Made by a program: the position numbers and the translations under genes
Part shown: piece after piece, positions 711-27,044 of the stretch
Position numbering within the stretch: position 1 is the first letter of the stretch
How the letters are laid out: each line of letters starts with the position of its first letter
DNA from: Escherichia phage FEC14
Sequence record: MG383452
Reading direction: 5' to 3' (one strand)
Length of the DNA: 64,000 bases
The notes under the pieces: model-generated
Told to the model about the DNA's origin: nothing
Databases searched by the model: none
The model's input: the letters and a program-made list of their open reading frames with translations, nothing else

Positions 711-2141
711 TTAACCGAAATTCCAATTATTCACGGTCTCGGCTTTCTTGACATCATTTACGTCGCCTGTTTTGTTTAAGTCATGTTTGATATGAACATT
801 CTCAACATAACGGGCTTCCTCTTCTGTCAGGTCTCGCTTGACTTCATTCCAATCCAAGTCAAACAATATCTGTTTATCTTGATCCATACCGAACAAGAAC
901 GATTTGAGTTTCTGTTTATTGGCATAACGGTTTTTCAAGATAGACGCTCGGGCTTTCTTAACAGCCGCCAGTTCATCAGGGGCATAGAACGCCATGATGA
1001 AGTCTGCAACCTTCGGAATACCGATAGCATCTGCCAGGTCGCTAATATTACCATCAGTCGCCGATTGTTTTTCACGGATAAATTGCATACCTGTCCATAC
1101 AGGGCAATCAAATTCAAATCCAAGCGCACGGAATTCACGCGCCACCGACGTATAATACACGTTGGTGTTCTGCATTAAATGGGCAGGAAGGCGAGAAGAC
1201 GCTGATTCACCCAAGTAGTCTATAATAATGACGTCCGGCGTAATTCCCGTGGATGTCGCATAATCAAGGATATCGCGGCGATATAGTCCTGTATGCCCAG
1301 CGCCTGAAGGATATTCCTTGATAACAATATCACCCTTCATGGAACCGTCTTGACGAGTTCGCAACTTTTGTATCGTGGCGACATATTCATGTCGTGAGAG
1401 CTTCTCTAAGGACTCGAAGTCCCTGCGCATCATACGGGCATCAAGGCGGTGACGCCAGACGTTCTCAGCCACTTCTAGGGTGAATACGAATACGTTCAAC
1501 CCTTGCTCGGAGTAACCAGCAGCCAAATCAATCAGAGTTGTTGTCTTACCCGCATTAATTGCACCCGTCACGATGTTCAGCGTTTTCTTACCAACACCAC
1601 CACGAGTCGCTTTGTTGAATATCTCTACAGCGAAAGGAATCTTCGCTTCATTAGAGTTCATGTGGTCGTATTGTTGTTCAGCCATTTCCCAATAGATATG
1701 GCCAAGATAAGAATCAAAACTTATCGCCAACGCCTCTTGTAGGAGAGTTGGAATCGTGTTCATCTCATCTTTACGTTTCTCATCACCATAGATGTTGACG
1801 GCGTGTTTGATCGCATTATGAACAGCTTTCTGCCGCGCCCAACTTTCTGTTTCTTTTACAAGCCATTCCTGATGGAATGTGTTGTCATTGATATTCTCAA
1901 GAGCAGAAATAGCTTGTTCAAATACGTGTTCGTTGAGCGAAGTCTTTTCCAGCATAATAGACAACGCTTCAACCGAAGGACGAGCATTATATTCGCAAGT
2001 GTAATGGTCAATGAGACCGAATATAATTTTCTCGCCTTCGTTATCGAAATAATCGGCTTTCAAATACGGCTGGATCTTTCTTTGATATTCTTCGTTATAG
2101 ATTAATTGGGAAAGCACGACAGATTCGAGTAACATTGGCAA
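711..2141 (-). CDS. 41: replicative DNA helicase, T4 gp41-like (DnaB family)
   Basis: 476 aa; Walker A GAINAGKTT; motifs WLVKETE, ALAISFDSYLGH, IIIDYLGE match T4 gp41; uvsX-40-41 synteny. Confidence 0.9.
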   Translation of the reverse strand: MPMLLESVVLSQLIYNEEYQRKIQPYLKADYFDNEGEKIIFGLIDHYTCEYNARPSVEALSIMLEKTSLNEHVFEQAISALENINDNTFHQEWLVKETESWARQKAVHNAIKHAVNIYGDEKRKDEMNTIPTLLQEALAISFDSYLGHIYWEMAEQQYDHMNSNEAKIPFAVEIFNKATRGGVGKKTLNIVTGAINAGKTTTLIDLAAGYSEQGLNVFVFTLEVAENVWRHRLDARMMRRDFESLEKLSRHEYVATIQKLRTRQDGSMKGDIVIKEYPSGAGHTGLYRRDILDYATSTGITPDVIIIDYLGESASSRLPAHLMQNTNVYYTSVAREFRALGFEFDCPVWTGMQFIREKQSATDGNISDLADAIGIPKVADFIMAFYAPDELAAVKKARASILKNRYANKQKLKSFLFGMDQDKQILFDLDWNEVKRDLTEEEARYVENVHIKHDLNKTGDVNDVKKAETVNNWNFG

Positions 2142-2471
2142 CTACCCCACCAAAATTTTGTTGTAATCCTGAGCATTTTGCTGTATCAGATCAACTAAGA
2201 TATCCCCAGACACCACAGTGAACAAGTCATTTTCTTTCAAATTAACAAATAACAAACGCCATGGTTTCTTCAATATATCTGTTGTAAAGGATAACCGAGG
2301 CTCTCCATTGTCTAAATGGACACCCACTTTCCCTATACGAAATTGAACGCCACGGAATTTGCCTTCCGTTATTTCGATTATTGCTAACTGATCAGAACCA
2401 GGGTCGATGATTTTGTAATTAACGGGGGAGTCTCCTCCCCCTGCAATATTACTCGGTTGTTTTGATGACAT
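2142..2471 (-). CDS. hypothetical protein in the position of T4 gene 40
   Basis: 109-aa ORF between uvsX and 41; assignment by synteny only, no sequence motif recognised. Confidence 0.4.
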   Translation of the reverse strand: MSSKQPSNIAGGGDSPVNYKIIDPGSDQLAIIEITEGKFRGVQFRIGKVGVHLDNGEPRLSFTTDILKKPWRLLFVNLKENDLFTVVSGDILVDLIQQNAQDYNKILVG

Positions 2472-3534
2472 TATCGAGGCGCTCCAGCATATCTGCAGGC
2501 ATAACCGAACTCTGAGAGATACCGAACATGTTGTTCACATCGTCAACAAAGTCTGGGTTTTCCAGCAGCGGATACCAGAAGTCATCCCCCAGCTCTGCCT
2601 TACGATATTTCTTTTCTTTTTCTGGATCAAACCCGCCTTTGGCAGTGCGTTGATACCAAGAACCACTCACCAAATCCACATACCCCAGCATGCGCGCAAT
2701 TTCTAACATACCGGACCAACGGTCAATACCGCCTTCATACAACACAGTGACAGGGAACTTGGCTTTTTCACGGACAAAGCGGCCTTTCATAATGTTGACT
2801 GTAAACTGCCATCCCAAAAGGTCTTTGTCTTCTTTAACTTGAGAACGCGTGATGAACCACAATTGGTTAGAAGACAGGAACCCCTGTTTACCGCCTTTGA
2901 TGTTCGGCTCGGCGTATTGGTTCCCGATTTCATCATAGTACGAGTTGATCCATACCAAAACGAATTTCTTTTCAGTGACCAACGGGGTGATAACACGCCA
3001 AAAACTATTGAGAGCGCGAGCGCGGGTCATATCTTGTGTGTCTTTGCCCGCGATGGCATCATCAACTTCTTTGGTAGACGGCAACTGGCTGATTGAGTCA
3101 ATGAATACGATGATCTTGTCACCTTTCTGTGCATCGTTCAGAAGCTGTGTCAGCTTGATCTTCGTCTTTTCAACGTTTTCAATTGGCAGATACAAGACAC
3201 GGTCCATGTCAATACCCATAGATGTCCAGTAGTTTTCATTCGCACCGCCTTCTGAATCCGCGAAGATACAAATTGCATCAGGAAACTTATCCATGTAAGC
3301 CTTAACATCCACCAGCCCAAACATGGTTTTGAATGTACGAGAATCCCCCACCAACTGTTTGATGCCTGATATCAGACCACCATCAATACGACCGGACCAG
3401 GCCAAATTCAGAATAGGAATACCCGTACTGCAAATAATGTCAGGCTTCAGCGCATCGGTCTTTGACAGCACTTCGGCATTCGGGTCCAGTTTCTTTGCTG
3501 TCTTGAGCATGCGAGCCATCAATGAATCGGCCAT
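2449..3534 (-). CDS. uvsX: UvsX RecA-like recombinase
   Basis: 361 aa; P-loop variant GDSRTFKT (T4 GPSKSFKS), DMTRA and GGxQGF motifs collinear with T4 UvsX. Confidence 0.85.
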   Translation of the reverse strand: MADSLMARMLKTAKKLDPNAEVLSKTDALKPDIICSTGIPILNLAWSGRIDGGLISGIKQLVGDSRTFKTMFGLVDVKAYMDKFPDAICIFADSEGGANENYWTSMGIDMDRVLYLPIENVEKTKIKLTQLLNDAQKGDKIIVFIDSISQLPSTKEVDDAIAGKDTQDMTRARALNSFWRVITPLVTEKKFVLVWINSYYDEIGNQYAEPNIKGGKQGFLSSNQLWFITRSQVKEDKDLLGWQFTVNIMKGRFVREKAKFPVTVLYEGGIDRWSGMLEIARMLGYVDLVSGSWYQRTAKGGFDPEKEKKYRKAELGDDFWYPLLENPDFVDDVNNMFGISQSSVMPADMLERLDNVIKTTE

Positions 3535-4049
3535 TTCGTTTCCTCTTGCTTGTTGATCGTAATTAATAAATCGGTGCCCAAGACTTTCTTGGACAATATA
3601 TTGATTGCTTCGTGAATCGCCATTATTGACGGGAGTTTTTCATCGTTAATTTCGGAACCCCCGCGTTCTGTTAAATACATATTACGCAGACGATTGTGCT
3701 GTGCCCTGTTGACACAAGAAACATTCAATGCGATATTCAGGATATACATCATTTGTTCAGTTGTAACATCCTTTGGAATAGCATGAACATAATATATCGC
3801 ATCTTCAAAATAGATATGCTGTAATGACTCTGGAATTTCTTCCCCGCCAAAAGCAAAATCTTCAATGCGTTTAAATAGTGTTTCCGGCTCTGGTGTTGTA
3901 ATATGTTGTGTTACAGTAGCCGCACCATCTGGCTCTTTCTTGAAATTGGTCGCAATAACGACATGACCGCCTGGTTTAATAAACTCAGCGAAGTTCTCTG
4001 CCATGTACGGGGCATGTTCCGCATAATATGATACGACAACTGTAAACAT
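3519..4049 (-). CDS. hypothetical protein (176 aa)
   Basis: ORF track; operon context between uvsX and nucleotide-metabolism genes. Confidence 0.4.
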   Translation of the reverse strand: MFTVVVSYYAEHAPYMAENFAEFIKPGGHVVIATNFKKEPDGAATVTQHITTPEPETLFKRIEDFAFGGEEIPESLQHIYFEDAIYYVHAIPKDVTTEQMMYILNIALNVSCVNRAQHNRLRNMYLTERGGSEINDEKLPSIMAIHEAINILSKKVLGTDLLITINKQEETKWPIH

Positions 4050-4600
4050 TAGAACTCCAGAGTCAGAGGGGTTTCGGCAGACTTGTCATAGTTCGCACCG
4101 CCAGCAGCACGTAGACGATTGCGATCGTTCTTGCGCTTGTGGGCCAGCATATAGGTTTCGGTGTCCAGATCCAAATAACCACAAGCCTTTGATAAAAACC
4201 GCACAAAACGGATAACATCTGGTTGAACCATAAATGACGTAAAACATTCTGTGACCGATTCCAGATTGGCCGATTTGTCTATCACTCGTCCGTCCTTGAA
4301 GAAAAGGTCAATCTGCATTTCAACTGGGAAAGCAGAACCAAATCCAGATAAAATGGAAGACAACATAAAATGTACCACGTCCACCAATTCGTAGACAGCT
4401 GCTTCTCGGTCATATTGTATCCCACCGCCATAGATTTTCCAGTCCTGGGTTGTTTCGTCAAGAAACTCTGCCCACTCACGATAGATGGAGTTCACCACCG
4501 CCACATGAGTCCAATGTTTACGCCACTCTTCCCCAAAATAGGCCACGTTGGTGGCCTTTTGAAGTTCGAGCAGACTTTTGATATGCTCTGCTGTGATCAT
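4049..4600 (-). CDS. putative MazG-like all-alpha NTP pyrophosphatase (T4 gp56 dCTPase/dUTPase-like)
   Basis: 183 aa; acidic helix pattern REWAEFLDE ... EAAVYELVDVVHF typical of MazG/HisE fold; context with dNMP kinase and hydroxymethylase. Confidence 0.4.
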   Translation of the reverse strand: MITAEHIKSLLELQKATNVAYFGEEWRKHWTHVAVVNSIYREWAEFLDETTQDWKIYGGGIQYDREAAVYELVDVVHFMLSSILSGFGSAFPVEMQIDLFFKDGRVIDKSANLESVTECFTSFMVQPDVIRFVRFLSKACGYLDLDTETYMLAHKRKNDRNRLRAAGGANYDKSAETPLTLEF

Positions 4601-5166
4601 TTCCGTTCCCTATAAAATTTGACGAATGGTTGCCAACCTTCAAATGGGTTAACAAATTCATAATCAACTTTCATCTCATCAATGAAAGCCTCTATGTCGT
4701 CCTCTATGATACCGCCGCGATCTGCCTTTGAAATGCGGGTGATGGGACATTTAGTGCTCAGCGCCCATTCATATTCTTGAGGCGTCCGTAGATCACTCAC
4801 AATATAATGAATGTTAGGATTCTGTTCAACTAATGGGAGTTGGTAACGCTTAAAGAAAGACAAAAACAGATCCGGTTGGACATAACGAAGCCCCGTATCG
4901 CTGCCGAGATGAAGCCAGATCTGCCTTGGGGTTAATCCCTTGGGGTTATCTGGGTGAACATATGGCAAGTCCTTGATATCGTCCTCTACTTCCTCTGGCA
5001 ACCAAGGATAGATGTAATGAGCCACCCGACGCAACTCGTCCGAGAAAGATAAGCGCTGGATGTCCATATCACCCTGTAAATGGTGATAGCTGATGAGGGA
5101 CTCCAAACAGAAGTCCTTGCCGGAGCGCTTGCGCCCCGTAAAGAATTCAAGGTTCGGATACATCAT
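4597..5166 (-). CDS. 1: deoxynucleoside monophosphate kinase (T4 gene 1-like)
   Basis: 189 aa; N-terminal P-loop FFTGRKRSGKDF matches T4 gp1 FLSGVKRSGKDT. Confidence 0.55.
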   Translation of the reverse strand: MMYPNLEFFTGRKRSGKDFCLESLISYHHLQGDMDIQRLSFSDELRRVAHYIYPWLPEEVEDDIKDLPYVHPDNPKGLTPRQIWLHLGSDTGLRYVQPDLFLSFFKRYQLPLVEQNPNIHYIVSDLRTPQEYEWALSTKCPITRISKADRGGIIEDDIEAFIDEMKVDYEFVNPFEGWQPFVKFYRERK

Positions 5167-6212
5167 ACTGCACCTTCCAAGAACTTGGGATCAACGATCT
5201 TGCGGTCAATCGGAGAATGGGCGAGCGCGATGTTCAAACCATGATCCTGAATCAGGTTCATGTTGATGAGCTTGTCGTTCAGTTTGCAGTACAGGCAGTA
5301 CGCCATCTGCACGATCAGGCCGCGATCCGCGCCGTACTCCTTCAGGTGAGCGACAACAGTTTCCCACGGGCTGCCGATATCACAGTGATGAAGCACACCA
5401 GTGAACAGATTGCGGATATGGTTCTGGTTGGTCACGTTCGTGAAGTAGATCATGGAGTTGATGAAACCACCAGTGACTTTTGTGTCTTTGGTGATCTTGC
5501 CAAGCTGCTTCTGGCTGACTTCATTGTTGTAGTAATGAAGATTGTTAGAGAATAGCTTGTACTGACCGACATCAACATCTAACACCTGAGCAATCACTTC
5601 CTGAAGAATAGAGAACTCAATGAAGTTGATTGAACTCATCCCCCACAGAACATCCTGTGAGCGGTTGATGACCGTCAGGTTCAGACGACCTTCAACGATG
5701 GCGAACAACAGAGCCAGGTTACACACCATGTCCTTAGTCTTTGCTTCGCCGCTCTCGCTGAACTTCGCCAGACCAGCATCCGAATCTAGAGCCGGATCAT
5801 AGATGGTGAGGTACGCTTGACGAGTATTTGGGTTCTTGCGTAGGCGGTTGATAACGCTATCCAGCTGGCCATGGGCGTACAGACGCGGACCATAAGCGGC
5901 TCGCCATGTATGGCCATTATCAGAGAAGTTGGCGGCGCGAGGGAGGACACGGGACAAGAAGCGCACATCATCGCGCCCAGACAGAACCCAGAAGGTCTCG
6001 CCGATGGCAGCAATAGCCGATGAGTTGCGTCCTTCAACAGACAGCCAACGGTCGCGGATGTCAGAGACGGTGATCGTCACGCCATCAATAAAACGAGTGC
6101 CGTCTGTGTTGATCTCCGCGTTACCAGGGTCAGATTCAATCCCGTGCTCACGGATAGCCAAGACAGCCTGTTTCAGCATGTCGTTGTTGTTAATTGCTTT
6201 GATTTCCATCAA
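5163..6212 (-). CDS. thymidylate synthase / dCMP hydroxymethylase superfamily enzyme; putative pyrimidine deoxynucleotide hydroxymethylase
   Basis: 349 aa; nucleophile Cys in KDMVCNLALLF followed 20 residues later by RSQDVLWGMSSINF, same spacing as T4 gp42 MCTN...RSND and TS PCH...RSxD...FN; NTRQAYLTIYDP loop; no TS-type His after Cys. Confidence 0.7.
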   Translation of the reverse strand: MMEIKAINNNDMLKQAVLAIREHGIESDPGNAEINTDGTRFIDGVTITVSDIRDRWLSVEGRNSSAIAAIGETFWVLSGRDDVRFLSRVLPRAANFSDNGHTWRAAYGPRLYAHGQLDSVINRLRKNPNTRQAYLTIYDPALDSDAGLAKFSESGEAKTKDMVCNLALLFAIVEGRLNLTVINRSQDVLWGMSSINFIEFSILQEVIAQVLDVDVGQYKLFSNNLHYYNNEVSQKQLGKITKDTKVTGGFINSMIYFTNVTNQNHIRNLFTGVLHHCDIGSPWETVVAHLKEYGADRGLIVQMAYCLYCKLNDKLINMNLIQDHGLNIALAHSPIDRKIVDPKFLEGAV

Positions 6213-6883
6213 TAAATACTCCCAAAATCACGATTGAGAAACGCAAAAACAGCCTGCTCTACAGTCAGGCCATCGGACTTCATCATACCTGCGGGAACGG
6301 TAGGGAACAAGCCTTTATGCCGTTGACGATGATCATGAACTCTCTCCCACTTCTCGACCACCAGACTTTCATTGAAGTCTGCGCCACCGTTACGCGATTT
6401 GACACGGGCAATACAGGTTTCAAGAGGGGTATCCATAAAGAGGACGACCAATTCACGTGGTGGGCGTGTCAGGCGGGGAATCCAAGAACTCAATAATGTA
6501 GACGGAATGATGCCTTCGAAAATCACATCATATTTCAGGTATTCTGGTTGGTCAGCAATAGACAACGCGAACAACATCTGCTCAGTATCCTTCAGAGAAT
6601 CAACCCCTTTGGACTTAGACTTGTCATATTTACCGACACAGACAATATTGTAAGATGGACAAACCGTGAGCATGATCTTACTGTTATGGGTTACGACATA
6701 CGCCTGAGGATCATTCTCCGCCAAATAAGAGGGCACAGTAGACTTACCACTACCATTGGAGCCTTTAATGTAATACAACTCTCCTCGTGCCGAATATTCC
6801 CCTTCTACAGTAGGTGGTTTGACAAACAAATGCACAGGGCGCTTCAACAGCCCTTTGAGCGAATAAGACATGACATGCTCCAA
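6209..6883 (-). CDS. PNK-type P-loop kinase; candidate 5-hydroxymethyl-deoxyuridine DNA kinase or nucleotide kinase
   Basis: 224 aa; Walker A GSNGSGKST (polynucleotide-kinase style, unlike the RSGKD dNMP kinase), Walker B-like VIFEGII; immediately upstream of hydroxymethylase. Confidence 0.45.
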   Translation of the reverse strand: MEHVMSYSLKGLLKRPVHLFVKPPTVEGEYSARGELYYIKGSNGSGKSTVPSYLAENDPQAYVVTHNSKIMLTVCPSYNIVCVGKYDKSKSKGVDSLKDTEQMLFALSIADQPEYLKYDVIFEGIIPSTLLSSWIPRLTRPPRELVVLFMDTPLETCIARVKSRNGGADFNESLVVEKWERVHDHRQRHKGLFPTVPAGMMKSDGLTVEQAVFAFLNRDFGSIY

Positions 6884-9189: not shown

Positions 9190-9894
9190 CTAACCATTTT
9201 TGTGTTTACGACGTGCGTCCTTCCAAACAGACATCTGACTCTGTTTCTGGAATCGAGCAGTACGCATAAACAAAACGACCTCCCAATATTGCGGTTCAAT
9301 TTCATAAAGTTGTGAACGAAATTGATCTGCGCGGTATAATTTGACACAATGATTGTACAAAGGGTGATTCGCAAACCGCTTTAGCGCATCCCAGGTAAGT
9401 CTCAAACGTGTTTTAGAACGATATGCCCGTTCATTTCTCAATTTAATGAGATCTTCAAATACCAACAATCTGAGTTTAGGCGGTAAATAATGGAGGTTTA
9501 GGCCATAAAGATAGGTCACACCACGTTCACCGAATTTCACCCCATCCCCCTTCACAAAATTGAAGAAGAACACCAGAGGATACATATCCCAATACGGGAG
9601 TTCATCTTTAGTCAGCGCATCATATTTGAAATAATACATGCGACCAACAATATAACGCACACCCTGAACAGGACGTTTATTTTCAGCGAATGCTTTCATC
9701 ATGTGATTCGGAGATAAGTTAGCATCTTTCGACACGCGCTCCATAAACCACACATGAGAACGACGGATATTACGCTTCGCTTCCGGCCCAAAATGTTGAC
9801 GATATTTGCGGATGTAACGCTTGACCAGTTCTGGGGCGTCCATCTCGGCGGGAAGCAACAACGGGTCTTCTTCACCCATAGCGTTCTTAGCCAT
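9190..9894 (-). CDS. hypothetical protein (234 aa)
   Basis: ORF track; AAGGAG RBS upstream of ATG; divergent from late gene at 9949. Confidence 0.5.
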   Translation of the reverse strand: MAKNAMGEEDPLLLPAEMDAPELVKRYIRKYRQHFGPEAKRNIRRSHVWFMERVSKDANLSPNHMMKAFAENKRPVQGVRYIVGRMYYFKYDALTKDELPYWDMYPLVFFFNFVKGDGVKFGERGVTYLYGLNLHYLPPKLRLLVFEDLIKLRNERAYRSKTRLRLTWDALKRFANHPLYNHCVKLYRADQFRSQLYEIEPQYWEVVLFMRTARFQKQSQMSVWKDARRKHKNG

Positions 9895-9906: not shown

Positions 9907-9914
9907 TATAAATA
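9907..9914 (+). promoter_or_regulatory. T4-type late promoter TATAAATA
   Basis: exact TATAAATA about 35 nt upstream of the plus-strand gene start. Confidence 0.5.
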
Positions 9915-9948
9915 TCAACAGATATATTATTTAAATGGAGTCCTCATC

Positions 9949-10893
9949 GTGGAAGACTATCGCAATTTTCTAACGCAACTGCTTCAACGGGGTATTTCCC
10001 GCAAGAACAGATTTCGTGTTACAATTCCGTTGCCGCCTGGGATATTTGATTCCAATGCAACACTAGCAAATGATGGGAACGCGTATCCTTCATCTTCATC
10101 ATTTGGGGATCTGTTCAAACAAAGCGCCCGTATTGTAAACGCATTCTTTGGAGGGACAAACCAAACATCTCGTTCCCTGCAAATGATGTGTATGGTCGCA
10201 TCTTTACCTGGTACAGGGATTGACACTACTCCCATGACCAACAACGGCAACCACATTAAAATGCCGAACAACAAGACGAACATTGATCTGGAGTTGTCGT
10301 TCCTCCTCGCCAACGATTATTATGAAAAGTCGGTCATGGACAAATGGAAGAATCTGATATTCGACCCATACACAACCAAGATGGGTTATTATGAAGATTT
10401 CGTGACCGATATTTGTATAGAACAAATGGATACAGAAGATCAGGTTGTTCATCGCGTTTATGTGACTGAGGCTCACCCCATCAACTTCAGTTCTATAGAT
10501 CTGGATAAAAGCGCCGCCGATCAATTTAATCAGTACAACATTTCCTTTTCTTATAACAAAGTATTATCGGAGACTGAATATGAAACGCGCAGCCTCGCCA
10601 GCGATTTTCTTCCTTTGGGTATTACTGATGCTCTTGCTTCCGGAGACTGGGAAACCGCTGCGTCAAAAGCCGGACAGCTGTATAAAAAGATCAAAGAAGG
10701 AAACTTCACAGGTGAAGCCCTGCTGGCTTATAAGCAACTCGATCAGCTTGTAAACAATCTGGCTGGTATCAGCCTGGCTGATTTCGAAAGGATCTCTATC
10801 GGCATCCAGAGGGATATCTTAGGCAATGATAACCTGACGGCGTCTGAGAAGAGTAGTCTGTTGGGATTGTTACAGGATGTTGTCAAAAACTAA
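9949..10893 (+). CDS. late-expressed protein, probable virion (baseplate/tail) component; start uncertain
   Basis: long plus-strand frame ending 10893; first in-frame ATG is far downstream, so GTG 9949 preceded by GGAG (9937-9940) is proposed; the 9754-9948 part of the tracked ORF overlaps the minus-strand gene and is rejected. Confidence 0.45.
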   Translation: MEDYRNFLTQLLQRGISRKNRFRVTIPLPPGIFDSNATLANDGNAYPSSSSFGDLFKQSARIVNAFFGGTNQTSRSLQMMCMVASLPGTGIDTTPMTNNGNHIKMPNNKTNIDLELSFLLANDYYEKSVMDKWKNLIFDPYTTKMGYYEDFVTDICIEQMDTEDQVVHRVYVTEAHPINFSSIDLDKSAADQFNQYNISFSYNKVLSETEYETRSLASDFLPLGITDALASGDWETAASKAGQLYKKIKEGNFTGEALLAYKQLDQLVNNLAGISLADFERISIGIQRDILGNDNLTASEKSSLLGLLQDVVKN

Positions 10894-10920: not shown

Positions 10921-11952
10921 TTAGTCTTGCTTCAGGAACTGCTCGAACTCATCAATGGAAGCCGTCTGTTTCGCATCGGCACCACCATTATTGGCTGGAA
11001 CAGATTGCTGTGCATTAGAAGGCTGAGATTGTTGTTGGTTCAGACTTTCCTGCGCTGTTGGGCGCTGTGGTTCCTGAGACTGGGTAGGCGCATGTGCCAT
11101 AGTAGAAGCACCACCTTCAACCAGAGGCTGATTATCAGGGATGGCCAGAACTTTGCGCAAACGTTTTTCCAGATCTTCGTACGATTTGAAGTTGGCCGGA
11201 TTAAAGAACTCAAACAAGCTGTGCTCTTTTTCCCAGATCTCTTCAATGTATTCGTCTGTCCCCAAAGGTGCCGGAGTATCCCACTTCACATTGGTGAAGT
11301 TGGCCACCAGGCCTTTCCAGTTTCCGAACTCTTTCTCTTCGCCGTACAGATTCAGAATCAGATTCGCGCCTTCCCACATATCGAACGGGTCGAATTTCGG
11401 GTCAGTTGAGAACTTAGGATTCTGAGCCGAATCCAGGATTTTCTTGACGGCATTACCGAACTCAAGCAAGAAGACCTTGCCGTTGTTTTCCGGATTGTTG
11501 CCATCTTTGATCACCAGGATGTTGGCGTAGTATTTGGTGTCCGGCAGACGTTTTTTGAGAACTGTTTTCAGCTTTTCATCATTCGTTTCTTTCTGTTGTG
11601 CCCACAGAGGACGGTCATGGTCACGAACAGGATCATCGTTACCGAAAGTCTGAGGAGAGTTTTCGATATACCAACCACCAGCACCCTGGAATGCGTGTTT
11701 CATGATCATGGCACACGGAGTTAACACAGCATCTTCAGGGATGGTGCCTTCTTCTTTAGCCTTCATGTCCACCAAAGGGATCGACAGGAAACGAATGATG
11801 TTTTCAGAAGTACCCTTATCATTCCAGGTCCACTTCCAGATGCGTGGGTCACGACCGCCACCAACACGCTGGCCTTGCTGAGCGAGTCGCTGTTGCATAG
11901 CTTCGGCTTGTTGGCCACGAGATTGTTTAAGACGATCAAATAAATTACCCAT
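10921..11952 (-). CDS. 32: single-stranded DNA-binding protein, T4 gp32-like
   Basis: 343 aa; YYANILVIKDGNNPENNGKVF matches T4 gp32 YWANILVVKD...ENEGKVF; acidic C-terminal tail. Confidence 0.85.
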   Translation of the reverse strand: MGNLFDRLKQSRGQQAEAMQQRLAQQGQRVGGGRDPRIWKWTWNDKGTSENIIRFLSIPLVDMKAKEEGTIPEDAVLTPCAMIMKHAFQGAGGWYIENSPQTFGNDDPVRDHDRPLWAQQKETNDEKLKTVLKKRLPDTKYYANILVIKDGNNPENNGKVFLLEFGNAVKKILDSAQNPKFSTDPKFDPFDMWEGANLILNLYGEEKEFGNWKGLVANFTNVKWDTPAPLGTDEYIEEIWEKEHSLFEFFNPANFKSYEDLEKRLRKVLAIPDNQPLVEGGASTMAHAPTQSQEPQRPTAQESLNQQQSQPSNAQQSVPANNGGADAKQTASIDEFEQFLKQD

Positions 11953-12048
11953 TTTAATATTCCTCTATAATCCGCCCCTTCGGGCTATTCTGTAAATGTA
12001 TTTGTCAATTATTCCGACGGTGTAATTATACTGCGTTTTGCTATTGAG

Positions 12049-17678: not shown

Positions 17679-17742
17679 TTACGCTGGTGAGGGCAGATAA
17701 TGCCCTCTCGTGCTGGAGAGGCAATATCCAAAGGGGTTTAAC

Positions 17743-18123
17743 ATGAAAGAGTACAAGGACATTGACCTGAAGTTTGGCATGCATCCGGTCACCAAAGATG
17801 TCACTAAGAAAACAGGCATTTATGCTGTACTACAATCTGTGCGTAATATAGTGATGTCGACGGTAGGTGATTGGCCGACGTATCCGAGTATTGGGGCGGG
17901 GTTGTATACCATGCTGGGAGAAAACACAAATCCCACGATACAGGTCGACGTGAAGAACAAAGTTGAAGATGCCATTGCTCTTTTTGAGCCAAGAGCTGAA
18001 TTGCAATCTGTTGATGTATCATTGTCGGACGATTATCATTCTCTGGGCGTAACCATCACGTTCTATGTGGTCAACAACCCAGAGCCGATAACAGACACCA
18101 TATGGTTGAAACGGACAAATTGA
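17743..18123 (+). CDS. 25: baseplate wedge protein, gp25-like
   Basis: 126 aa from ATG 17743 (AAGGGG RBS); collinear with T4 gp25 (…LFEPRAE…VDVSLSDDYHSLGVTITFYVVNNPEP). Confidence 0.7.
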   Translation: MKEYKDIDLKFGMHPVTKDVTKKTGIYAVLQSVRNIVMSTVGDWPTYPSIGAGLYTMLGENTNPTIQVDVKNKVEDAIALFEPRAELQSVDVSLSDDYHSLGVTITFYVVNNPEPITDTIWLKRTN

Positions 18124-19266: not shown

Positions 19267-19491
19267 TCAGCGTTTCAAACTTGCGGCGAGTCCAGTAACG
19301 TCGGTCACGGTTTGATCAGCCAGGACAATCACGGGCATAGACATGCGCTGTTTACCAGTGATTTTCTGTAATTCTTCCAGCTTGTAATCTTTGTCTAGCT
19401 TCAGAATTTGGTGTTCAATACCGCGAATGCGACAGATGTTTTCAGCTTGTAAACATTGCGCACAACCTTGTTTGGAATAAATCGTAATCAT
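19267..19491 (-). CDS. nrdH: NrdH-like glutaredoxin
   Basis: 74 aa; MITIYSKQGCAQCLQAE with CxxC redox motif typical of NrdH redoxins; adjacent to nrdB/nrdA. Confidence 0.6.
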   Translation of the reverse strand: MITIYSKQGCAQCLQAENICRIRGIEHQILKLDKDYKLEELQKITGKQRMSMPVIVLADQTVTDVTGLAASLKR

Positions 19492-19500
19492 TTCTCACCT

Positions 19501-20604
19501 TTAGGCAAATTTCAGACCGTCGGAGACTGATCCAGTAAGGACACCAGTCAGATAATCAGGGGCTTCCGCTTCCTGTAATGCATATTGCATTGTTTTATTA
19601 TCTAGCCACTCATTTATCCATGGCACCGGATTGTCTTTACGGGCTTGTCCTGGATATGGGTGGCCAATGGCTCCCATACGGTGTGTTGCCAACCAGTCCA
19701 CCATTTGATGAAGGATATTTGCATTCAGTCCCAGCATTGAGCCGTCTTTGAACAGATAATTCGCCCATTCTTTTTCTTGGTTGACAACGTCGACATACAT
19801 CTGGGTCATTTCGCCGCGCAGTTCTTCTCTAATAATGGCAAAATCAGGGTCCATCAGTGGCAGACGGTTCAGGAAAGTCTGGGTCAGGATGAGGTGATCT
19901 TGCTCATCACGAGCAATCTGACGGATGATTTTAGCGTTGCCTTCCATTTTGTTGAGGAATTGCATGAAAGCCCAAGAACACGCGAATGAAACATAGAAAC
20001 GAACGCCTTCGAGGGAGTTAGCAGCAAACAGAGCACGCCAGAATGCACGCTTGGCGTTCATGATGTCTTCACGGGTGAACGCGCGTCCAGCCATACGCAT
20101 CCCGCTGTAACGCACCATGTCGTCGTAGTATACGCTGATCTGTCCGGCGCAATCGACGATCTCCTGAACGTCCAGAACATGGTCAAAAACGATACCAGGA
20201 TCATTCACTGTGTTACGAAGGATATGCGTGTAAGATAGTGAGTGGATGGCTTCTTGGCGCGTCCACTCCAGAATAGCAAATTGCGCTTCTGGTGTTGATG
20301 CCCATGGGCCAAACGCTTCGAACGGAGCAGCACCCTGGATAGAATCCAGCATGGTCTGTCGTTTCAGGTTGCTGAAGTAGATGTGTTGTTCCGCAGCGGA
20401 TAGAGTGGCAAAGTCTGCTTTGTCTTTGGTGACATCCACTTCTTCCGGACGCCAGAATTGGCTGAGGCCTTTTTCATACCATTTTTGAACAAAAGGCCAA
20501 GCCACTTTGTCATAACGCTGGATACTTACAGGGTCGCCAAAGAATGGCAGTCCTGTATTATTTGAAGATGGATCGAATACTGAGAATTGCTTTTGTTCGT
20601 TCAT
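19501..20604 (-). CDS. nrdB: ribonucleotide reductase class Ia small (beta) subunit
   Basis: 367 aa; di-iron ligand motifs EAIHS and ARDEQDH in the conserved order. Confidence 0.85.
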   Translation of the reverse strand: MNEQKQFSVFDPSSNNTGLPFFGDPVSIQRYDKVAWPFVQKWYEKGLSQFWRPEEVDVTKDKADFATLSAAEQHIYFSNLKRQTMLDSIQGAAPFEAFGPWASTPEAQFAILEWTRQEAIHSLSYTHILRNTVNDPGIVFDHVLDVQEIVDCAGQISVYYDDMVRYSGMRMAGRAFTREDIMNAKRAFWRALFAANSLEGVRFYVSFACSWAFMQFLNKMEGNAKIIRQIARDEQDHLILTQTFLNRLPLMDPDFAIIREELRGEMTQMYVDVVNQEKEWANYLFKDGSMLGLNANILHQMVDWLATHRMGAIGHPYPGQARKDNPVPWINEWLDNKTMQYALQEAEAPDYLTGVLTGSVSDGLKFA

Positions 20605-20674
20605 GTTTCTTTCCTGATGAATAAGGGGTGACGAATCACCCCTGATATTAAACGTTTGTGTTGTATAGACCTAA

Positions 20675-22951
20675 TCAAACAACACAGGTATCACAAATTT
20701 CTTCAACTTGTTTCAACTCTTCATCTTCCTTGGAGTCTTTGTTGGTGTTGTAATACAGAGTTTTACCACCCCACATGTAGAAAGACAGAATATCCTGCAT
20801 CATAAGAGAGCGCGGGATCTTGCCTTCTGGATATTTCTCTGGGTCATACCATGTGTTGGTGCTGATAGATTGATCTACCCAACGTTGTATGACCGCAGCC
20901 GTCTTCAGGTATTCAATACAATCCAGATTCCATTTCAGGTCATATAGAGGACCAAGGGTTTCTACATCCGGAACGATCTGTTTATAGACGCCGTCCTTGC
21001 TGCCTTTGATGCTGATGAGACCTTTTGGTGGCTCTATACCGTTCGTTGCGTTCAGCACCTGAGAGGAGCTTTCAGTTGGTGCTACGGCTAACAACGTGGC
21101 GTTACGGATCCCATACTCGGATAGGTTCTGCTTAAGACCTTCCCAGTCAAGACCATAGGCTTGCCCAACAGGCTTTTTGCCATTGGGTAGGATGTCCAGC
21201 GGGAGAGGCTGAAGGTCGGCTGTTACAAATCCGGAATCATGGATAGTTGATTTCTTACAAGATCCGAAACGCATGGCCAGACGGTTGGACGCTTTGACCA
21301 AGTAGAAATGAAGATGCGCCATCCACTTGTCTAGAAGTTCTAATCCGATAGGCGATCCATAACCCGTGAAATTCTTGGCCAGGAAATGTGCGACGTTGAC
21401 GATACCGATACCCAGAGGACGATATTCTTCTACGGCCAAACGGGCTTGGCGAGCTGGGTAGTCCTGATATTCCAACAACATATCCAAAGCTGAAACCAGA
21501 ACGAAAGCAACATCTTCCATTTCTGTTGGATCTTCAAATGCCGTCAGGTTAAATGATGCGAGTGTACACAGGGCAATGCGACCATCTTCATCATCATACT
21601 GTTGGAACTCACGAGTCGGGAGCGCGATTTCTAAACACAGATTAGAGCTATAAATCGTGTCCAAATTGAACGGACTATACTCGTTCATGTGATCAACGAA
21701 TGCGATGTAGATCCGTCCAGTGTCAGAACGCTGGTCTAGTAGCATTTGGAACACTTCTTCAGCTTGCAGCTTTTTGGAACGACATAACCCGGCGTCGGCG
21801 GCCTTGATCATATTGTCGTACATTTCGCGGAATTTATTGACGTCTGCGAAAAATGCTTCATACATTTCGCGGTTGTCTTTTGGATCAAACAGGTATAGAG
21901 GCTGTTTGTTCACCAGGCGCTCGAACATGACGCGGTTAATCTGAATCCCATAGTCGATACGGCGTTCACGGTTCTCTTCCAATCCACGGTTGTTTTTGAG
22001 AACAACGACATCATCAAATTGATAATGCCAGATGGGAACATAGCATGTTGCCGATCCACCACGGATACCGCCTTGAGAGCAAGACTTCAGGGCACCAGTC
22101 AAATACTTGATGAATGGAACCAGACCTGTATGGACCATTTCCCCTTTACGGATAGGGCTACCGATGCCACGAATTGCTCCAACATCGAATCCGATGCCAG
22201 CACGTTTGGAAACATAATCCACGATGCTTTTCGCAGTGGCATTAATTGAGTCCAATGTATCACCAGTTTTGATCAATACACAAGAGCTGAACTGTCGGGT
22301 CGGGGTGCGGACGCCGGACATAATAGGTGTTGGAAGACTGAATTTGCCTGTACTGGCGTATTCATAGAACTTCTTCACCATTGTCAGTCTGCTTTCTTTA
22401 TCCCACGCTGAGAATAATGCCATAGCGATTGCCATGTACATGACTTGAGGGGTTTCATAATACACTTTGCTGTCAGAAGAACGATCACGCAAAAGATATT
22501 TTTGAGTCAGCTGGCCCATTGCTGCCCAAGTGAAATTCTTGTCGCGTTTGTGGTTGATGACTGTGTTAAGTTCTTCGAATTCTTCTTTAGAGTAAAGTTC
22601 GAGGAATTCGCGGTCATAAACACCCAGCTTGGTGTTCTTTGCAAAGATATCCAGCAAATGAGGTGGCTTGTACTGACCATAGACAACCTTGCGCAGGTCA
22701 TACGACTTCAGGCGGGCAGCAACATATTGATAATTGGGTTTATCAACAGAAATTAAGGTGGCCGCAGCTTGGATAATGATATCCTGAATGCGTTCGGTTT
22801 TCATGTTATCGGTGAATTGAATCTTCGATGCAGCTTCCACCTCAGACACTGATACTCCTTCAAGGCCGTCACATGCTCGTTCAATAACGGTATGGAGTTT
22901 TTCAATGTCAAAGGGGACAGAAGATCCGTCCCGCTTTATGATGTTAATCAT
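20675..22951 (-). CDS. nrdA: ribonucleotide reductase class Ia large (alpha) subunit
   Basis: 758 aa from MINIIKRDGS (ATP-cone) with GAGGA RBS; C-terminal CDTCVV-type tail; tracked ORF extends 17 codons upstream. Confidence 0.9.
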   Translation of the reverse strand: MINIIKRDGSSVPFDIEKLHTVIERACDGLEGVSVSEVEAASKIQFTDNMKTERIQDIIIQAAATLISVDKPNYQYVAARLKSYDLRKVVYGQYKPPHLLDIFAKNTKLGVYDREFLELYSKEEFEELNTVINHKRDKNFTWAAMGQLTQKYLLRDRSSDSKVYYETPQVMYMAIAMALFSAWDKESRLTMVKKFYEYASTGKFSLPTPIMSGVRTPTRQFSSCVLIKTGDTLDSINATAKSIVDYVSKRAGIGFDVGAIRGIGSPIRKGEMVHTGLVPFIKYLTGALKSCSQGGIRGGSATCYVPIWHYQFDDVVVLKNNRGLEENRERRIDYGIQINRVMFERLVNKQPLYLFDPKDNREMYEAFFADVNKFREMYDNMIKAADAGLCRSKKLQAEEVFQMLLDQRSDTGRIYIAFVDHMNEYSPFNLDTIYSSNLCLEIALPTREFQQYDDEDGRIALCTLASFNLTAFEDPTEMEDVAFVLVSALDMLLEYQDYPARQARLAVEEYRPLGIGIVNVAHFLAKNFTGYGSPIGLELLDKWMAHLHFYLVKASNRLAMRFGSCKKSTIHDSGFVTADLQPLPLDILPNGKKPVGQAYGLDWEGLKQNLSEYGIRNATLLAVAPTESSSQVLNATNGIEPPKGLISIKGSKDGVYKQIVPDVETLGPLYDLKWNLDCIEYLKTAAVIQRWVDQSISTNTWYDPEKYPEGKIPRSLMMQDILSFYMWGGKTLYYNTNKDSKEDEELKQVEEICDTCVV

Positions 22952-23035
22952 AGCGATCCTCGGTTTGTGTTTATGCAGGCTGTTATTATACACCGCCTCC
23001 ATGGATTGAAGGCGGTGGGGAAGTTCGTGTGGTAT

Positions 23036-23875
23036 TTAAATGTTGTACAGGTCGTTAATTTCTAACATTAGGCGGGTGAAGTTGCCGCGACCATTACGAT
23101 CAGACTTATCGAATTCGATGATGCTGAATGGTTGAACCCACTCTGGATATTCATCTCCGATTTCTACGCCGTCAATTTGCAAGGAACCTGTTTCCAGCTT
23201 GTTGTTGAAGTCTTTAAAGGAATCCACATACGTCTGTAACGCACTATCACGCAGTCTCTTGTTAGACTGTTTGATATCTCCATTCACGAAGATGTACGAA
23301 GAATCTGAAGCACGGGTCAGTAAGTTCTTCAGCTGCTCCATATCGCATTCCTGCGCCTCTTCGATAATCAGGAAACAATCATCGAAAGTCATCCCTTTTA
23401 CAGTTTCAAGGTCTTGAATTTCTATGATGCGTTTCTCCCACAGATAGTTGAAGAAACCGTCGGAACCCGTATCTGTTTTGAGAACCTTTTTAAATGTCTG
23501 TATGAGCGGCATCAAATAAGGCATCAGCTTTTCATATGTGTCACCAGGCCGGAACCCTGCTGTGGTGCCAGTTGGAAGGGGAGAACGTGTGATGATGATC
23601 TTGTTGATTGTTTTGTCTATCAGATGTTTTGCTGCAGCAGATGCACCACAATAGGATTTGCCTGTACCTGCCGGACCGATAGCGATAGTGAGGTGTTCGT
23701 TTAATGCGGATTGATATGCGAGGTTCTGATTTTCTGAGAGGCCATTGAACGGAGCAATTTTGAAATCACCTTTAGAAAATTTCATCCAGTCTTCTTCCTT
23801 CTGGATGGTGTCTTTCTTACGAGCAGATTTTGTCTTCGCTGGCTTCATGGATACAACTTTAGACGCAGATTGCAT
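23036..23875 (-). CDS. phoH: PhoH-like ATPase
   Basis: Walker A GPAGTGKS, Walker B-like CFLIIEEAQ; ATG 23875 with AGGAAGG RBS (tracked ORF starts at upstream GTG). Confidence 0.75.
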   Translation of the reverse strand: MQSASKVVSMKPAKTKSARKKDTIQKEEDWMKFSKGDFKIAPFNGLSENQNLAYQSALNEHLTIAIGPAGTGKSYCGASAAAKHLIDKTINKIIITRSPLPTGTTAGFRPGDTYEKLMPYLMPLIQTFKKVLKTDTGSDGFFNYLWEKRIIEIQDLETVKGMTFDDCFLIIEEAQECDMEQLKNLLTRASDSSYIFVNGDIKQSNKRLRDSALQTYVDSFKDFNNKLETGSLQIDGVEIGDEYPEWVQPFSIIEFDKSDRNGRGNFTRLMLEINDLYNI

Positions 23876-23954
23876 GTTGAACCTTCCTATATCTACAGGG
23901 GTTGTCGACACCTTTAATTAAGCGACACGCCCAGCATACCTGTATATCAGATAA

Positions 23955-23977
23955 AGAAAAAGGCCGTTTCCGGCCTT
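23955..23977 (-). terminator. rho-independent terminator downstream of endolysin gene
   Basis: AGGCCG-TTTC-CGGCCT hairpin followed by T-run on minus strand. Confidence 0.45.
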
Positions 23978-23982
23978 GAGGA

Positions 23983-24777
23983 TTAGCAGAAACTCTTGTA
24001 TGCTGCCGCCAGTTTAGTATCATACTGGTTTTTCGCATATGCCGGACCATTGTACCGACGAGCAAACTCGGCCCAATTCTTGTTCTTCAGGGCTTTCCAC
24101 ATATTGGCATCAGCCTTGATGAACTTGACAAATGCCAGAAGATGAGCGCGTTCACCAGTCAGGAAATCAGTGAACATCTCTTTGGCATTTGAATAGCCAC
24201 AGATTTGGCAGTTGAACCCCATGATCTGGAATAGGCCGTAGGAAGCACTCTCGTAAGCGCAGTCCTCGTCAAGGGCGATTGCACCCTGAAGGCGTTCCAA
24301 CTCCGCGTCTCCGCCGATATACCCGCCAGAATTGGGGTTAACCAATGTTGGGTAGAGTTGGTACAGAGCATTGGCTCTTGCTTGCCCGAATTTGGCCGTC
24401 ACCTTTTTGTACATGATGTGGCGCTCAAACAGAGTTTTGATCTTGCCAGTTTTGGTAAAACCCGTGCCACGGGATTCTACCTGGTTCACCGCTTTCATAC
24501 TGGCCAGCTCAACACCAAGTTCACGTGCTGCGTCAACCAAGTCCGCTTCGGTCAGATGTTCCTGGTGAGCGTCTCCAGCGTTGCGGATAGCATAGAAGGT
24601 CTTTGGCCCAGCAATACCATCAATAACCAATCCAGCACCTGCCTGAACGGATTTGACGGCATTCTCTGTTGCCTTACCAAATATGCCATCGGCTGTAAGA
24701 GAGAAACCGATTTTGTTGAGGCTTTGTTGAAGTGCTTTGACTTCAGAACCTCGGTTGCCAAGTTTTAGAATGGCCAT
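23983..24777 (-). CDS. endolysin: N-terminal peptidoglycan-binding domain plus C-terminal N-acetylmuramidase-like domain
   Basis: GSEVKALQQSLNKIGFSLTADGIFGKATENAVKSVQ (PG_binding_1-like) and YGLFQIMGFN catalytic region; ATG 24777 with GGAGG RBS. Confidence 0.7.
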   Translation of the reverse strand: MAILKLGNRGSEVKALQQSLNKIGFSLTADGIFGKATENAVKSVQAGAGLVIDGIAGPKTFYAIRNAGDAHQEHLTEADLVDAARELGVELASMKAVNQVESRGTGFTKTGKIKTLFERHIMYKKVTAKFGQARANALYQLYPTLVNPNSGGYIGGDAELERLQGAIALDEDCAYESASYGLFQIMGFNCQICGYSNAKEMFTDFLTGERAHLLAFVKFIKADANMWKALKNKNWAEFARRYNGPAYAKNQYDTKLAAAYKSFC

Positions 24778-25745: not shown

Positions 25746-25773
25746 AGAGAGAAGGTTTTTGAGTTAAAAAGTT

Positions 25774-25983
25774 TTAGGTCGGCTTCTTTTTCAAATACTG
25801 GCGAGCCAAATTCATTTGTTCTTCAGTGATAGGACAACCGCCGAAGTCCACCATTCCGTTCCTCCAACCATGGATGAAACTCTTAGATTCTAAACCAGAT
25901 AGGACATATCCTTCACGGGCTTGCATATACCCGCGAAGAATCTCTTCATCGTCCATACTATTCAGTTCTTTCAAATCCATCAT
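25774..25983 (-). CDS. hypothetical protein (69 aa)
   Basis: ATGATG start overlapping primase stop (ATGA coupling); GAGGA RBS. Confidence 0.45.
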   Translation of the reverse strand: MMDLKELNSMDDEEILRGYMQAREGYVLSGLESKSFIHGWRNGMVDFGGCPITEEQMNLARQYLKKKPT

Positions 25984-27044
25984 ATCTTCCTCAAGTCAGA
26001 AAATCGTAAGGACGCCGACAGTCCCTGATATACGTTCTTGGCTATGATCTGAAGCAGATCCCGTATCGGGATATTTCCCTTGTCGGGGCGAACCATATCA
26101 TTGATATCCTTCCACGGTATTTCCGGTGGAAACAGAACGACTTTGACTCCGCTGTCTATCATCTTCTGTATACCGTCACAAACTTGTTTGTTCCTGTATT
26201 GGTTATCGGGGATATAGATGTCTCCCTTAGCACTTAATAAGTCGGCATCGGCAGTCGCAAGACAATTAGGTAGAAACAAGCTATCAATTGGACCTTCTAC
26301 TACCAACTTTGTTTTGTTCCAAATGATGCGCTCTTCCCCGTAGATTTTAGTGTCTTCGTTCTTAGGCTTGACAGTGGCATACCGTAATACCCCATCAGGA
26401 AGGTTATCGCCGAATGCGCGCCCCTGAACTATCTTCATGCGCCCGTCTTGGGTCCAGAATGGGATTACCAGCCGCTCATCTTCGGGTATCTTCTTTTGCT
26501 TCTCAACATCCGTTTCGAAACTCAGAAGATCTTGACGAAAATTCCTGCTGTAATACAACAAAGATAACGTGCTCTCCGGCATTCCCCTGCCTTCAACGTA
26601 ACGACGGGCGATATGATCACGGTCAAGAAGATCAAGGCGTATCATATTCCCAAGGTGCTCTTCATCTCGTTTGGCGACCTGAGAACCGATACGCGCTGTC
26701 TGGGTCAGGCGCTGTAGTGGTTTGAGTTTTTGTAACGGGCGGGAACTGGTATCCCCCATGATCCTGAATTTTTCAAGGTTGTATTCATTATACAGACGCT
26801 CGTCAAACTTCTTCAACCAGAATTCAAACGCCCAACCGCTCATTTCATTACAGTTGTGGCACTTGAAACGAAACACATCGTCATCACGATCATAAAAGAA
26901 GTGACCACGACGCTTGTTGGCACTCTTCTTAGAATCCCCGCATAATGGGCAACGAAATTTGGCGACAGCGCCAACACGTTCCCAGCTGAATTTATCAAGT
27001 CGGGGGGCGAGAAAATTGATGTATTGTTCGTCCAAGAATTTCAT
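25980..27044 (-). CDS. 61: DNA primase, T4 gp61-like
   Basis: 354 aa; zinc ribbon FRCPLCGDSKKS...FKCHNC; RLVIPF, VVEGPIDSLF, WKDINDM motifs collinear with T4 gp61. Confidence 0.8.
   Translation of the reverse strand: MKFLDEQYINFLAPRLDKFSWERVGAVAKFRCPLCGDSKKSANKRRGHFFYDRDDDVFRFKCHNCNEMSGWAFEFWLKKFDERLYNEYNLEKFRIMGDTSSRPLQKLKPLQRLTQTARIGSQVAKRDEEHLGNMIRLDLLDRDHIARRYVEGRGMPESTLSLLYYSRNFRQDLLSFETDVEKQKKIPEDERLVIPFWTQDGRMKIVQGRAFGDNLPDGVLRYATVKPKNEDTKIYGEERIIWNKTKLVVEGPIDSLFLPNCLATADADLLSAKGDIYIPDNQYRNKQVCDGIQKMIDSGVKVVLFPPEIPWKDINDMVRPDKGNIPIRDLLQIIAKNVYQGLSASLRFSDLRKI

Follow-up and report, generated by a model that had tools for sequence, protein, structure and literature searches.

The 64,000-nucleotide stretch of Escherichia phage FEC14 (sequence record MG383452; the window hereafter) encodes a large set of T4-type replication genes, with the gene of the replicative helicase (gp41) at position 711 and that of the primase (gp61) ending at position 27,044. 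The comparative analysis leaves hardly any doubt that the window comes from a Kuttervirus genome (family Ackermannviridae, formerly called "ViI-like") and is an ordinary part of it, with a family-specific map in which clusters of T4-type genes are permuted. Nothing contradicts the identification of the window as Kuttervirus. The scattered-cluster layout is already known and normal for this phage family, because the same conclusion was published by Kutter et al. in 2011, who reported T4 core genes in a "very different" gene order for phages CBA120, ViI and AG3 (PMC3184105). A preliminary description of the window, made without database searches, had placed the phage in a distant branch of the T4 superfamily, reminiscent of ViI-like phages, and not among T-even phages proper, and the identity of 98.8–99.2% to Kuttervirus phages over 23.3 kb agrees with this placement.

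As was found by a megablast search of the region 711–24000 against 50,697 phage records, 282 records match the query, and 159 of them span at least 80% of it in one collinear place. The best matches, with a coverage of 99–100%, are Kuttervirus phages, namely Salmonella phages vB_SenAc_BPS5 and S8 (99.2% identity) and phages SFP10 and Escherichia phage CBA120 (98.8%). A similar picture was obtained for the region 27000–51000 (coverage 86–92%, identity 93.5–98%). The whole window is collinear with bases 30568–94224 of CBA120 (NC_016570), 60.8 of the 64 kb being aligned by local blastn. The gene set, the strand layout and the genes of 5-hydroxymethyldeoxyuridine (hmdU) modification in CBA120, SFP10, S8 and BPS5 are identical to those of the window, and short divergent stretches distinguish Kuttervirus genomes from it at 4187–4348, 33799–34141 and 51031–51383. 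A recent rearrangement confined to this one sequence, or a chimera of its assembly, is an extremely improbable explanation of the arrangement. No support for it was found, though short segments (28082–31022, 33799–34141 and 51031–51383) do differ from CBA120; these are replacements in place, which leave the order unchanged, whereas the 23-kb stretch is carried collinearly by 159 independently sequenced phage records, and the gene order is the same in other genera and in another subfamily.

The NCBI taxonomy assigns CBA120 to Ackermannviridae; Cvivirinae; Kuttervirus. The usual practice of the International Committee on Taxonomy of Viruses is to delimit genera at about 70% and species at 95% genome-wide identity. 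The nucleotide identity of the window to recognised Kuttervirus members, compared over 64 kb of the ~157-kb genome, is that of a member of the genus, and its replication and baseplate region has the order typical of the family, the same as in CBA120, Dickeya phage Kamild (Limestonevirus) and Klebsiella phage KpS110 (Taipeivirus). The classic phage ViI (Vi01) belongs to the same group as the Kuttervirus phages (PMC3184105, PMC10892097). According to a later source (PMC11721090), this group was given the rank of a genus, Viunalikevirus, and then, in 2017, that of a family, Ackermannviridae. The window is thus classed with the ViI-like phages, a group used in the biocontrol of Salmonella and E. 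coli O157. Its GC content varies between 41 and 50%, and neither tRNA genes nor known RNA families were found in it.

The gene calls were checked independently of the public annotation by a tblastn search of every open reading frame (ORF) of at least 50 residues against the complete T4 genome, and by PHROGs and Pfam. With the exception of gene 40, all the gene identifications proposed earlier hold by at least one of these approaches. The window contains the T4-superfamily genes 41, 61, 32, 44, 62, 45, 46, 47, 55, 33, uvsX, uvsY, uvsW, regA, nrdA and nrdB, as well as the T4-type structural genes 2, 5, 25, 26 and 54/48; in CBA120, genes 43, 59 and 30, like those of head and tail, lie outside the part that corresponds to the window. 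The genes and gene blocks on which the comparison of gene order is based are as follows.

711–2135, minus strand: gp41-type replicative (DnaB-like) helicase, 32.5% identical to T4 gp41 (tblastn E 1e-79; phrog_19, E 2e-101; DnaB_C).
2142–2471, minus strand: 109-residue ORF, positional counterpart of T4 gene 40 (phrog_3998, unknown function).
2449–3534, minus strand: UvsX recombinase, 35.5% identical to T4 uvsX (phrog_97; Pfam RecA and T4_UVSX_C).
9190–9894, minus strand: gp2 DNA end protector, 33% identical to T4 gene 2 (phrog_429).
9907–10893, plus strand: first late island, a TATAAATA motif with the gp54/48-like gene.
9949–10893, plus strand: gp54/48-like tail-tube/baseplate gene (phrog_3629, phrog_45).
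10921–11952, minus strand: gp32 single-stranded DNA-binding protein, 30% identical to T4 gene 32 (Pfam gp32, E 8.5e-66; phrog_224).
12049–12778, minus strand: block of small ORFs, including one of 79 residues (phrog_254, phrog_385 and phrog_1076 for the block).
12298–12540, minus strand: gp33 late-transcription co-activator (PHROGs).
12533–12778, minus strand: FmdB-type zinc ribbon (PHROGs).
13054–13665, minus strand: RuvC-like Holliday junction resolvase (phrog_159; Pfam RuvC).
13054–14690, minus strand: the resolvase with two conserved hypothetical genes.
14704–18123, plus strand: second late island, with gp26, the elements of the gp26–gp5 gap, gp5 and gp25.
14740–15546, plus strand: gp26 hub.
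16053–17678, plus strand: gp5 with a CHAP domain.
17743–18123, plus strand: gp25.
19267–19491, minus strand: glutaredoxin (phrog_22, cited for the glutaredoxin–NrdB–NrdA block, 19267–23002).
19501–20604, minus strand: NrdB of the class Ia ribonucleotide reductase, 37% identical to T4 nrdB.
20675–23002, minus strand: NrdA of the class Ia ribonucleotide reductase, 43.5% identical to T4 nrdA.
23036–23875, minus strand: PhoH-like ATPase (Pfam PhoH; PHROGs).
23983–24777, minus strand: muramidase endolysin with a peptidoglycan-binding domain (Pfam Muramidase and PG_binding_1; PHROGs).
25980–27044, minus strand: gp61 primase, 33.9% identical to T4 gene 61 (E 5e-44; phrog_47).
34459–38703, minus strand: gp46–gp47–gp55 cluster (tblastn to T4; phrog_234 for gp55; CBA120 annotation).
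57612–60283, minus strand: regA–62–44–45 cluster (tblastn to T4; phrog_242, phrog_225, phrog_223).
60979–63709, minus strand: uvsW helicase (32.4% identical to T4), exonuclease and uvsY (phrog_298, phrog_231).

The distance from the end of the helicase gene 41 to the start of the primase gene 61 is 23,838 bp in the window and 1,648 bp in T4, which corresponds to the separation of about 24 kb noticed in the preliminary description. The clusters 55–47–46 and 45–44–62–regA, which had been described as conserved, are indeed intact; both fall beyond the region 711–27044. The nrdAB, phoH and endolysin genes do lie between gene 25 and the primase gene, at 19501–24777. Gene 32 was said to be situated between baseplate-type genes and a zinc-ribbon/small-ORF block, and this is correct, with the refinement that gene 33 is found nearby and gene 32 is not isolated. 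On the map, gene 32 is succeeded by the 79-residue ORF and this by gene 33; therefore, the T4 neighbourhood 32–(59)–33 is partly kept. The minus-strand block that begins with gene 32 (10921–14690) is flanked by two plus-strand late modules, 9949–10893 and gp26–gp5–gp25 (14740–18123).

Twenty-four genes are common to the window and T4, 19 recognised by tblastn and five by a shared PHROG family. Ten of the 23 neighbour relations are kept, with 13 breakpoints; random permutations keep 2.0 relations on average and nine at most in 20,000 shuffles. The identity of the proteins to their T4 counterparts is 24–45%. Taken together, these figures make the statement that local operons are conserved and the global order is scrambled quantitatively true. 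The micro-operons shared with T4 are 41–(x)–uvsX, nrdB–nrdA, 46–47–55 and regA–62–44–45. Unlike in T4, regA–62–44–45 is split from gene 43 and from 46–47, gp5 is inserted between 26 and 25, and a RuvC-like resolvase is present; no tblastn match to a homologue of T4 endonuclease VII (gene 49) was obtained. The genome-wide comparison of CBA120 with T4 gave 37 tblastn anchors, 16 kept circular adjacencies and 21 breakpoints. The morphogenesis block 13–14–17–18–19–20–21–23 of CBA120 is collinear with that of T4, and the replication genes are scattered: 59 and 30 are located at 25–27 kb, 41 and uvsX at 31–34 kb, 32 at 41–42 kb, 61 at 56–57 kb, 46 and 47 at 64–67 kb, regA–62–44–45 at 88–90 kb and 43 (DNA polymerase) at 145–148 kb. 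This re-derives a published fact: the T4 core genes have survived in small modules, which do not keep a common order from one family of T4-related phages to another; the observation on gene order is in itself nothing new and matters little.

The preliminary description had also suggested a ViI-like modification of the DNA. The genes of an hmdU pathway, a hydroxymethylase-like gene and a 5-hmdU DNA kinase gene, are present in the window by Pfam and match characterised enzymes of ViI.

3519–6883, minus strand: nucleotide/DNA-modification block, comprising an ACT-like protein (Pfam ACT_phage), a dUTPase_2/MazG-like nucleoside triphosphate (NTP) pyrophosphohydrolase, a deoxynucleoside monophosphate (dNMP) kinase, a thymidylate-synthase homologue and a 5-hmdU DNA kinase.
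5163–6212, minus strand: divergent thymidylate-synthase homologue, probable dUMP hydroxymethylase (Pfam Thymidylat_synt).
6209–6883, minus strand: 5-hmdU DNA kinase (Pfam PF18748, HMUDK_HMUD1, E 3.7e-113).
55434–56690, minus strand: HMUDK_hel protein of 418 residues with the HMUDK helical domain (PF18723, E 2.7e-84), hypothetical in CBA120.

In ViI, the 5-hmdU DNA kinases gp67 and gp243, the serine:DNA transferase gp247 and the pyridoxal-phosphate-dependent decarboxylase gp226 lead to 5-(2-aminoethoxy)methyl-dU (PMC8989533), a pathway that has been characterised experimentally (PMC5889632). The aGPT-Pplase and PLP decarboxylase genes fall outside the window. Labelled thymidine is not incorporated by CBA120, whose thymidylate-synthase homologue groups with the homologues of hmdU phages (PMC3184105). 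The modification inference is sound because the genes found in the window are in line with this literature on ViI and CBA120. The modification of the window is hmdU-based, in contrast to the glucosyl-hydroxymethylcytosine of T4: the pathway of the T-even phages was not found, as neither the window nor the complete CBA120 genome gave a tblastn match to T4 gene 42 (dCMP hydroxymethylase), a-gt or b-gt (E 1e-3 or 1e-4). As a separate point of annotation hygiene, the 5-hmdU DNA kinase gene at 6209–6883 is mislabelled "terminase small subunit" in RefSeq and in PHROGs (phrog_800); the real small terminase gene of CBA120 is located at 110282–110962.

These data bear on another explanation, according to which the phage is a scrambled T-even-type (Straboviridae) phage, closest to T4-like coliphages. 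The T4 core genes, the enterobacterial host and several T4 micro-operons speak for it, yet the identity of the proteins to T4 is low, the hmdU pathway takes the place of dCMP hydroxymethylase and glucosyltransferases, and the 99%-identical relatives are Ackermannviridae in the NCBI taxonomy. The gp41 sequence is at least 80% identical to proteins of 271 records, the examples among the matches listed all being Ackermannviridae phages; it is 46.6% identical to proteins of two Vibrio phages, and cyanophages, T-even phages and other Straboviridae are all at the level of 31–35%. With about 32–33% for T-even phages and about 34–35% for cyanophages, the T-even phages are no closer. [quoted passage not shown] The gene order of the T-even phages (61 beside 41, 43–regA–62–44–45–46–47 contiguous, 32–59–33 contiguous) is absent from the window, and the Straboviridae phages 44RR2.8t, Aeh1 and Pm5461 retain the 40–41–61 arrangement of T4. 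A T-even origin can accordingly be given next to no credence. T-even phages with the T4 gene order as closest relatives, the outcome named in the preliminary description as incompatible with its view, were looked for and are not what was found.

The assignment to Kuttervirus is accompanied by a conservation of the map well beyond this genus. The 23-kb query has a collinear place of 23–26 kb, with 76–78% identity, in Agtrevirus, Taipeivirus and Limestonevirus records. According to the annotation, the order from gp41 to the primase, endolysin included, is the same in Kamild, which belongs to a different subfamily, and KpS110 agrees with the window from gp41 to PhoH. The order shared with Limestonevirus and Taipeivirus includes the two plus-strand baseplate islands and an intergenic element between gp26 and gp5; Agtrevirus (Shigella phage Gloob and Enterobacter phage EspM4VN) was compared through the 23-kb match and the gp26–gp5 interval. 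In Limestonevirus, unlike in the window, additional homing endonucleases occur and the NrdA gene is enlarged. The next-closest gp41 (46.6%) is that of Vibrio phage D506 (OZ195882, unclassified, ~157 kb), which shares with the window a block of seven genes: 41, the small ORF, uvsX, x, the NTP pyrophosphohydrolase, the dNMP kinase and the thymidylate-synthase homologue. Beyond this block the order of D506 is different; its DNA polymerase gene is 12 kb away, and the gp2/gp32/baseplate/nrd/primase series is absent from its next 30 kb. Since the order is kept in Limestonevirus and Taipeivirus and lost past the first block in D506, the arrangement is a trait of enterobacterial Ackermannviridae that erodes at greater distance.

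Such conservation raises the question of whether a different replication strategy, in coupling or timing, and not neutral shuffling, lies behind the separation of primase and helicase and the placing of gene 32 amid late genes. The strict conservation of the arrangement across several genera is compatible with selection, and gene 33 and the resolvase gene stay near gene 32. However, conservation of order at nucleotide identities of at least 77% is expected from common descent alone, the order of the Vibrio relative differs beyond the first block, and the KVP40-like Vibrio phage K566, within the T4 superfamily, also has no adjacent primase. A dedicated strategy thus appears unlikely.

Functionally coupled genes stay in short co-oriented clusters (41–x–uvsX, 32–x–33, nrdB–nrdA, 46–47–55, regA–62–44–45, uvsW...uvsY), and the 13–23 head and tail block is also kept together, elsewhere in the genome. 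The clusters are permuted relative to T4, presumably in the course of long divergence, and the order then became fixed, since several genera have it in common. As the proteins of the replisome, recombination and late transcription would act in trans, linkage of their genes would not be needed; selection may keep only tight translational or transcriptional couples, leaving the larger map free to permute by recombination. Expression timing would then be set by promoter class and not by map position, with the minus-strand genes lying in the direction of early or middle transcription and the (T/C)ATAAATA motifs of the plus-strand baseplate islands presumably read by gp55, gp33 and gp45. Recombination with module shuffling as the historical mechanism, and the function of the promoters, are both inferred.

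The motifs concerned are of the T4 late promoter type, a further similarity of the window to T4, and gp55, gp33 and gp45 are all encoded in the window. The exact T4 late promoter octamer TATAAATA has three copies, and a variant precedes gp5.

9907–9914, plus strand: TATAAATA, 34 nt before the first start codon of the gp54/48-like island.
14704–14711, plus strand: TATAAATA, 28 nt before the first start codon of the gp26 island.
29643–29650, minus strand: TATAAATA, 24 nt before the ORF 29049–29618.
16024–16031, plus strand: CATAAATA, 21 nt before the gp5 start.

The heptamer ATAAATA is rarer than expected (six occurrences in the window against 9.7), and four of the six fall into the 40-nt intervals upstream of genes, which make up about 3% of both strands (p ~1e-5, a rough estimate). 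Kamild likewise carries the motif ahead of gp26, gp5 and the resolvase gene and, past the primase, ahead of a hypothetical ORF on the minus strand; the motif before gp5 is invariant in six genomes of four genera.

Several points limit the interpretation given above. The total of three TATAAATA copies against 1.6 expected is not significant alone, so that only the motif positions are informative, and the use of the promoters, like the timing of the strands, is deduced. Besides, homology was not confirmed for "gene 40" of the uvsX–40–41 cluster: of the operon named in the preliminary description, uvsX and 41 stand, and the ORF between them has no detectable similarity to gp40. This ORF of 109 residues is about the size of T4 gp40, but BLASTP gives no alignment between the two, they belong to different PHROG families (phrog_3998, and phrog_999 for gp40, a head vertex assembly chaperone), and the hhalign comparison gave a probability of 3.4%, with shallow profiles of three and five sequences, at which very remote homology is possible. 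The ORF as a gp40 homologue was therefore rejected, all three comparisons being negative. Phages of Kuttervirus, Limestonevirus and Taipeivirus, as well as Vibrio phage D506, all have this ORF between uvsX and gp41, and the name "gene 40" should not be transferred in annotation on position alone.

The gap between gp26 and gp5 deserves separate description. Its 507 bp (an alignment that includes the gp5 start codon) are 83% identical to Kamild, against 77% over the aligned 23-kb stretch. The following elements were distinguished in it.

15547–16052, plus strand: gp26–gp5 gap.
about 15581–15709, plus strand: short possible coding stretch of ~43 codons, seen by eye from third-position substitutions and unannotated in the window.
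15696–15716, plus strand: predicted intrinsic terminator with compensatory stem changes.
15880–15944, plus strand: putative RNA element of ~65 nt upstream of gene 5, an H-type pseudoknot followed by a 7-bp hairpin.

In Kamild and Gloob, the annotation has a 150-nt ORF in the place of the short coding stretch. In the predicted RNA element, stem 1 pairs AUGCC (15887–15891) with GGCAU (15897–15901), and stem 2 pairs the loop CCAU (15893–15896) with the downstream AUGG (15906–15909), which results in the H-type pseudoknot. The gap has a strongly conserved core, and a 49-nt part of it recurs once in CBA120, on the minus strand at 133221–133269, 118–166 nt upstream of the start of the gp6 baseplate-wedge gene. 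This second copy (element at about 133214–133278, minus strand) has the same orientation and about the same distance to gp6 as the first copy to gp5, so that both CBA120 copies lie ~120–165 nt upstream of gp5 and gp6. Two copies per genome are also seen in several viral contigs of Kuttervirus-, Agtrevirus-/Limestonevirus- and Taipeivirus-like phages.

A scan of the whole collection for the RNA core, with a pattern of 16 specified bases, gave 43 loci. About 13 of them were set aside as unrelated GC-rich contigs, which by eye have no downstream hairpin and no ACGAGC motif, a number consistent with chance by a rough estimate. The scan and the fetched loci together yielded 15 distinct copies, with both types represented, from the genera Kuttervirus, Limestonevirus, Agtrevirus and Taipeivirus; 14 of these copies were aligned for the count of pairs. 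In the three-helix structure all 224 of 224 cells (100%) form standard pairs, and five pairs are changed on both sides; when the partners are slid by 1–3 columns, only 22–54% of the cells pair. The covariation score is 0.317, compared with 0.137 for shuffles, none of 500 of which reaches 0.317. The covarying events are few; most of them separate the two paralogous types of copy or belong to the Taipeivirus lineage, and the structure was derived from the same sequences as were used to test it. The conserved G·U pairs point to the same sense as that of the downstream genes, hence to RNA. A covariance model made from the alignment matches the window once (15880–15944), the whole CBA120 genome twice and the Kamild and KpS110 stretches once each, and it has no match in T4 or in the Vibrio fragment. 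No Rfam family matches the element, a permissive search of the gp26–gp5 gap giving only snoRNA matches of chance level. Folding of the single sequence gave a z-score of only -1.3, and the long closing stem which it suggested was rejected on inspection of the alignment, as it is not conserved in other genera. The promoter candidates considered for the element (a TTGAAT -35-like box, a MotA-box-like TGCTTT and CTTTTC-N18-TAnnnT) were rejected as too inconsistent across the genera.

Judging by sequence, the element is probably a cis-regulatory leader or a small RNA tied to the gp5 and gp6 baseplate operons. The literature searches brought up no description of the pseudoknot. Searches for transcriptome, promoter and small-RNA work on Ackermannviridae gave nothing relevant either, and the only statement on late promoters that was found is the 2011 remark in the CBA120 paper that the late promoter of the family was not yet identified (PMC3184105). 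It can be proposed, jointly and as a tentative suggestion only, that Ackermannviridae use a T4-type late promoter, (T/C)ATAAATA, and that the pseudoknot RNA may control the expression of baseplate genes, as a new leader acting in cis or a new small RNA.

Some other features of the genome were noted. The gp5 homologue keeps the N-terminal OB domain of gp5, and a CHAP peptidase domain (residues 191–266) replaces the lysozyme domain of T4. The tailspike genes of CBA120, which in this family make up the branched adsorption apparatus (TSP1–4), lie at 118.9–129.2 kb, beyond the part of the genome represented by the window. The patch 28000–31100 is mosaic: it is 93–95% identical to Agtrevirus phages (Shigella phages MK-13 and Gloob, Enterobacter phage EspM4VN), compared with ~85% to other Kuttervirus phages, and no record covers 80% of it. 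A plus-strand ORF of 201 residues within this patch (28168–28773) has no PHROG or Pfam family. The ~700 bp between gene 45 and uvsW (60284–60978) have no annotated gene in CBA120 and hold only unsupported plus-strand ORFs without a Pfam family, together with one ATAAATA at 60371. Finally, a conserved protein of 750 residues with an N-terminal von Willebrand A domain, hypothetical in the CBA120 annotation, is encoded on the minus strand at 48641–50893.

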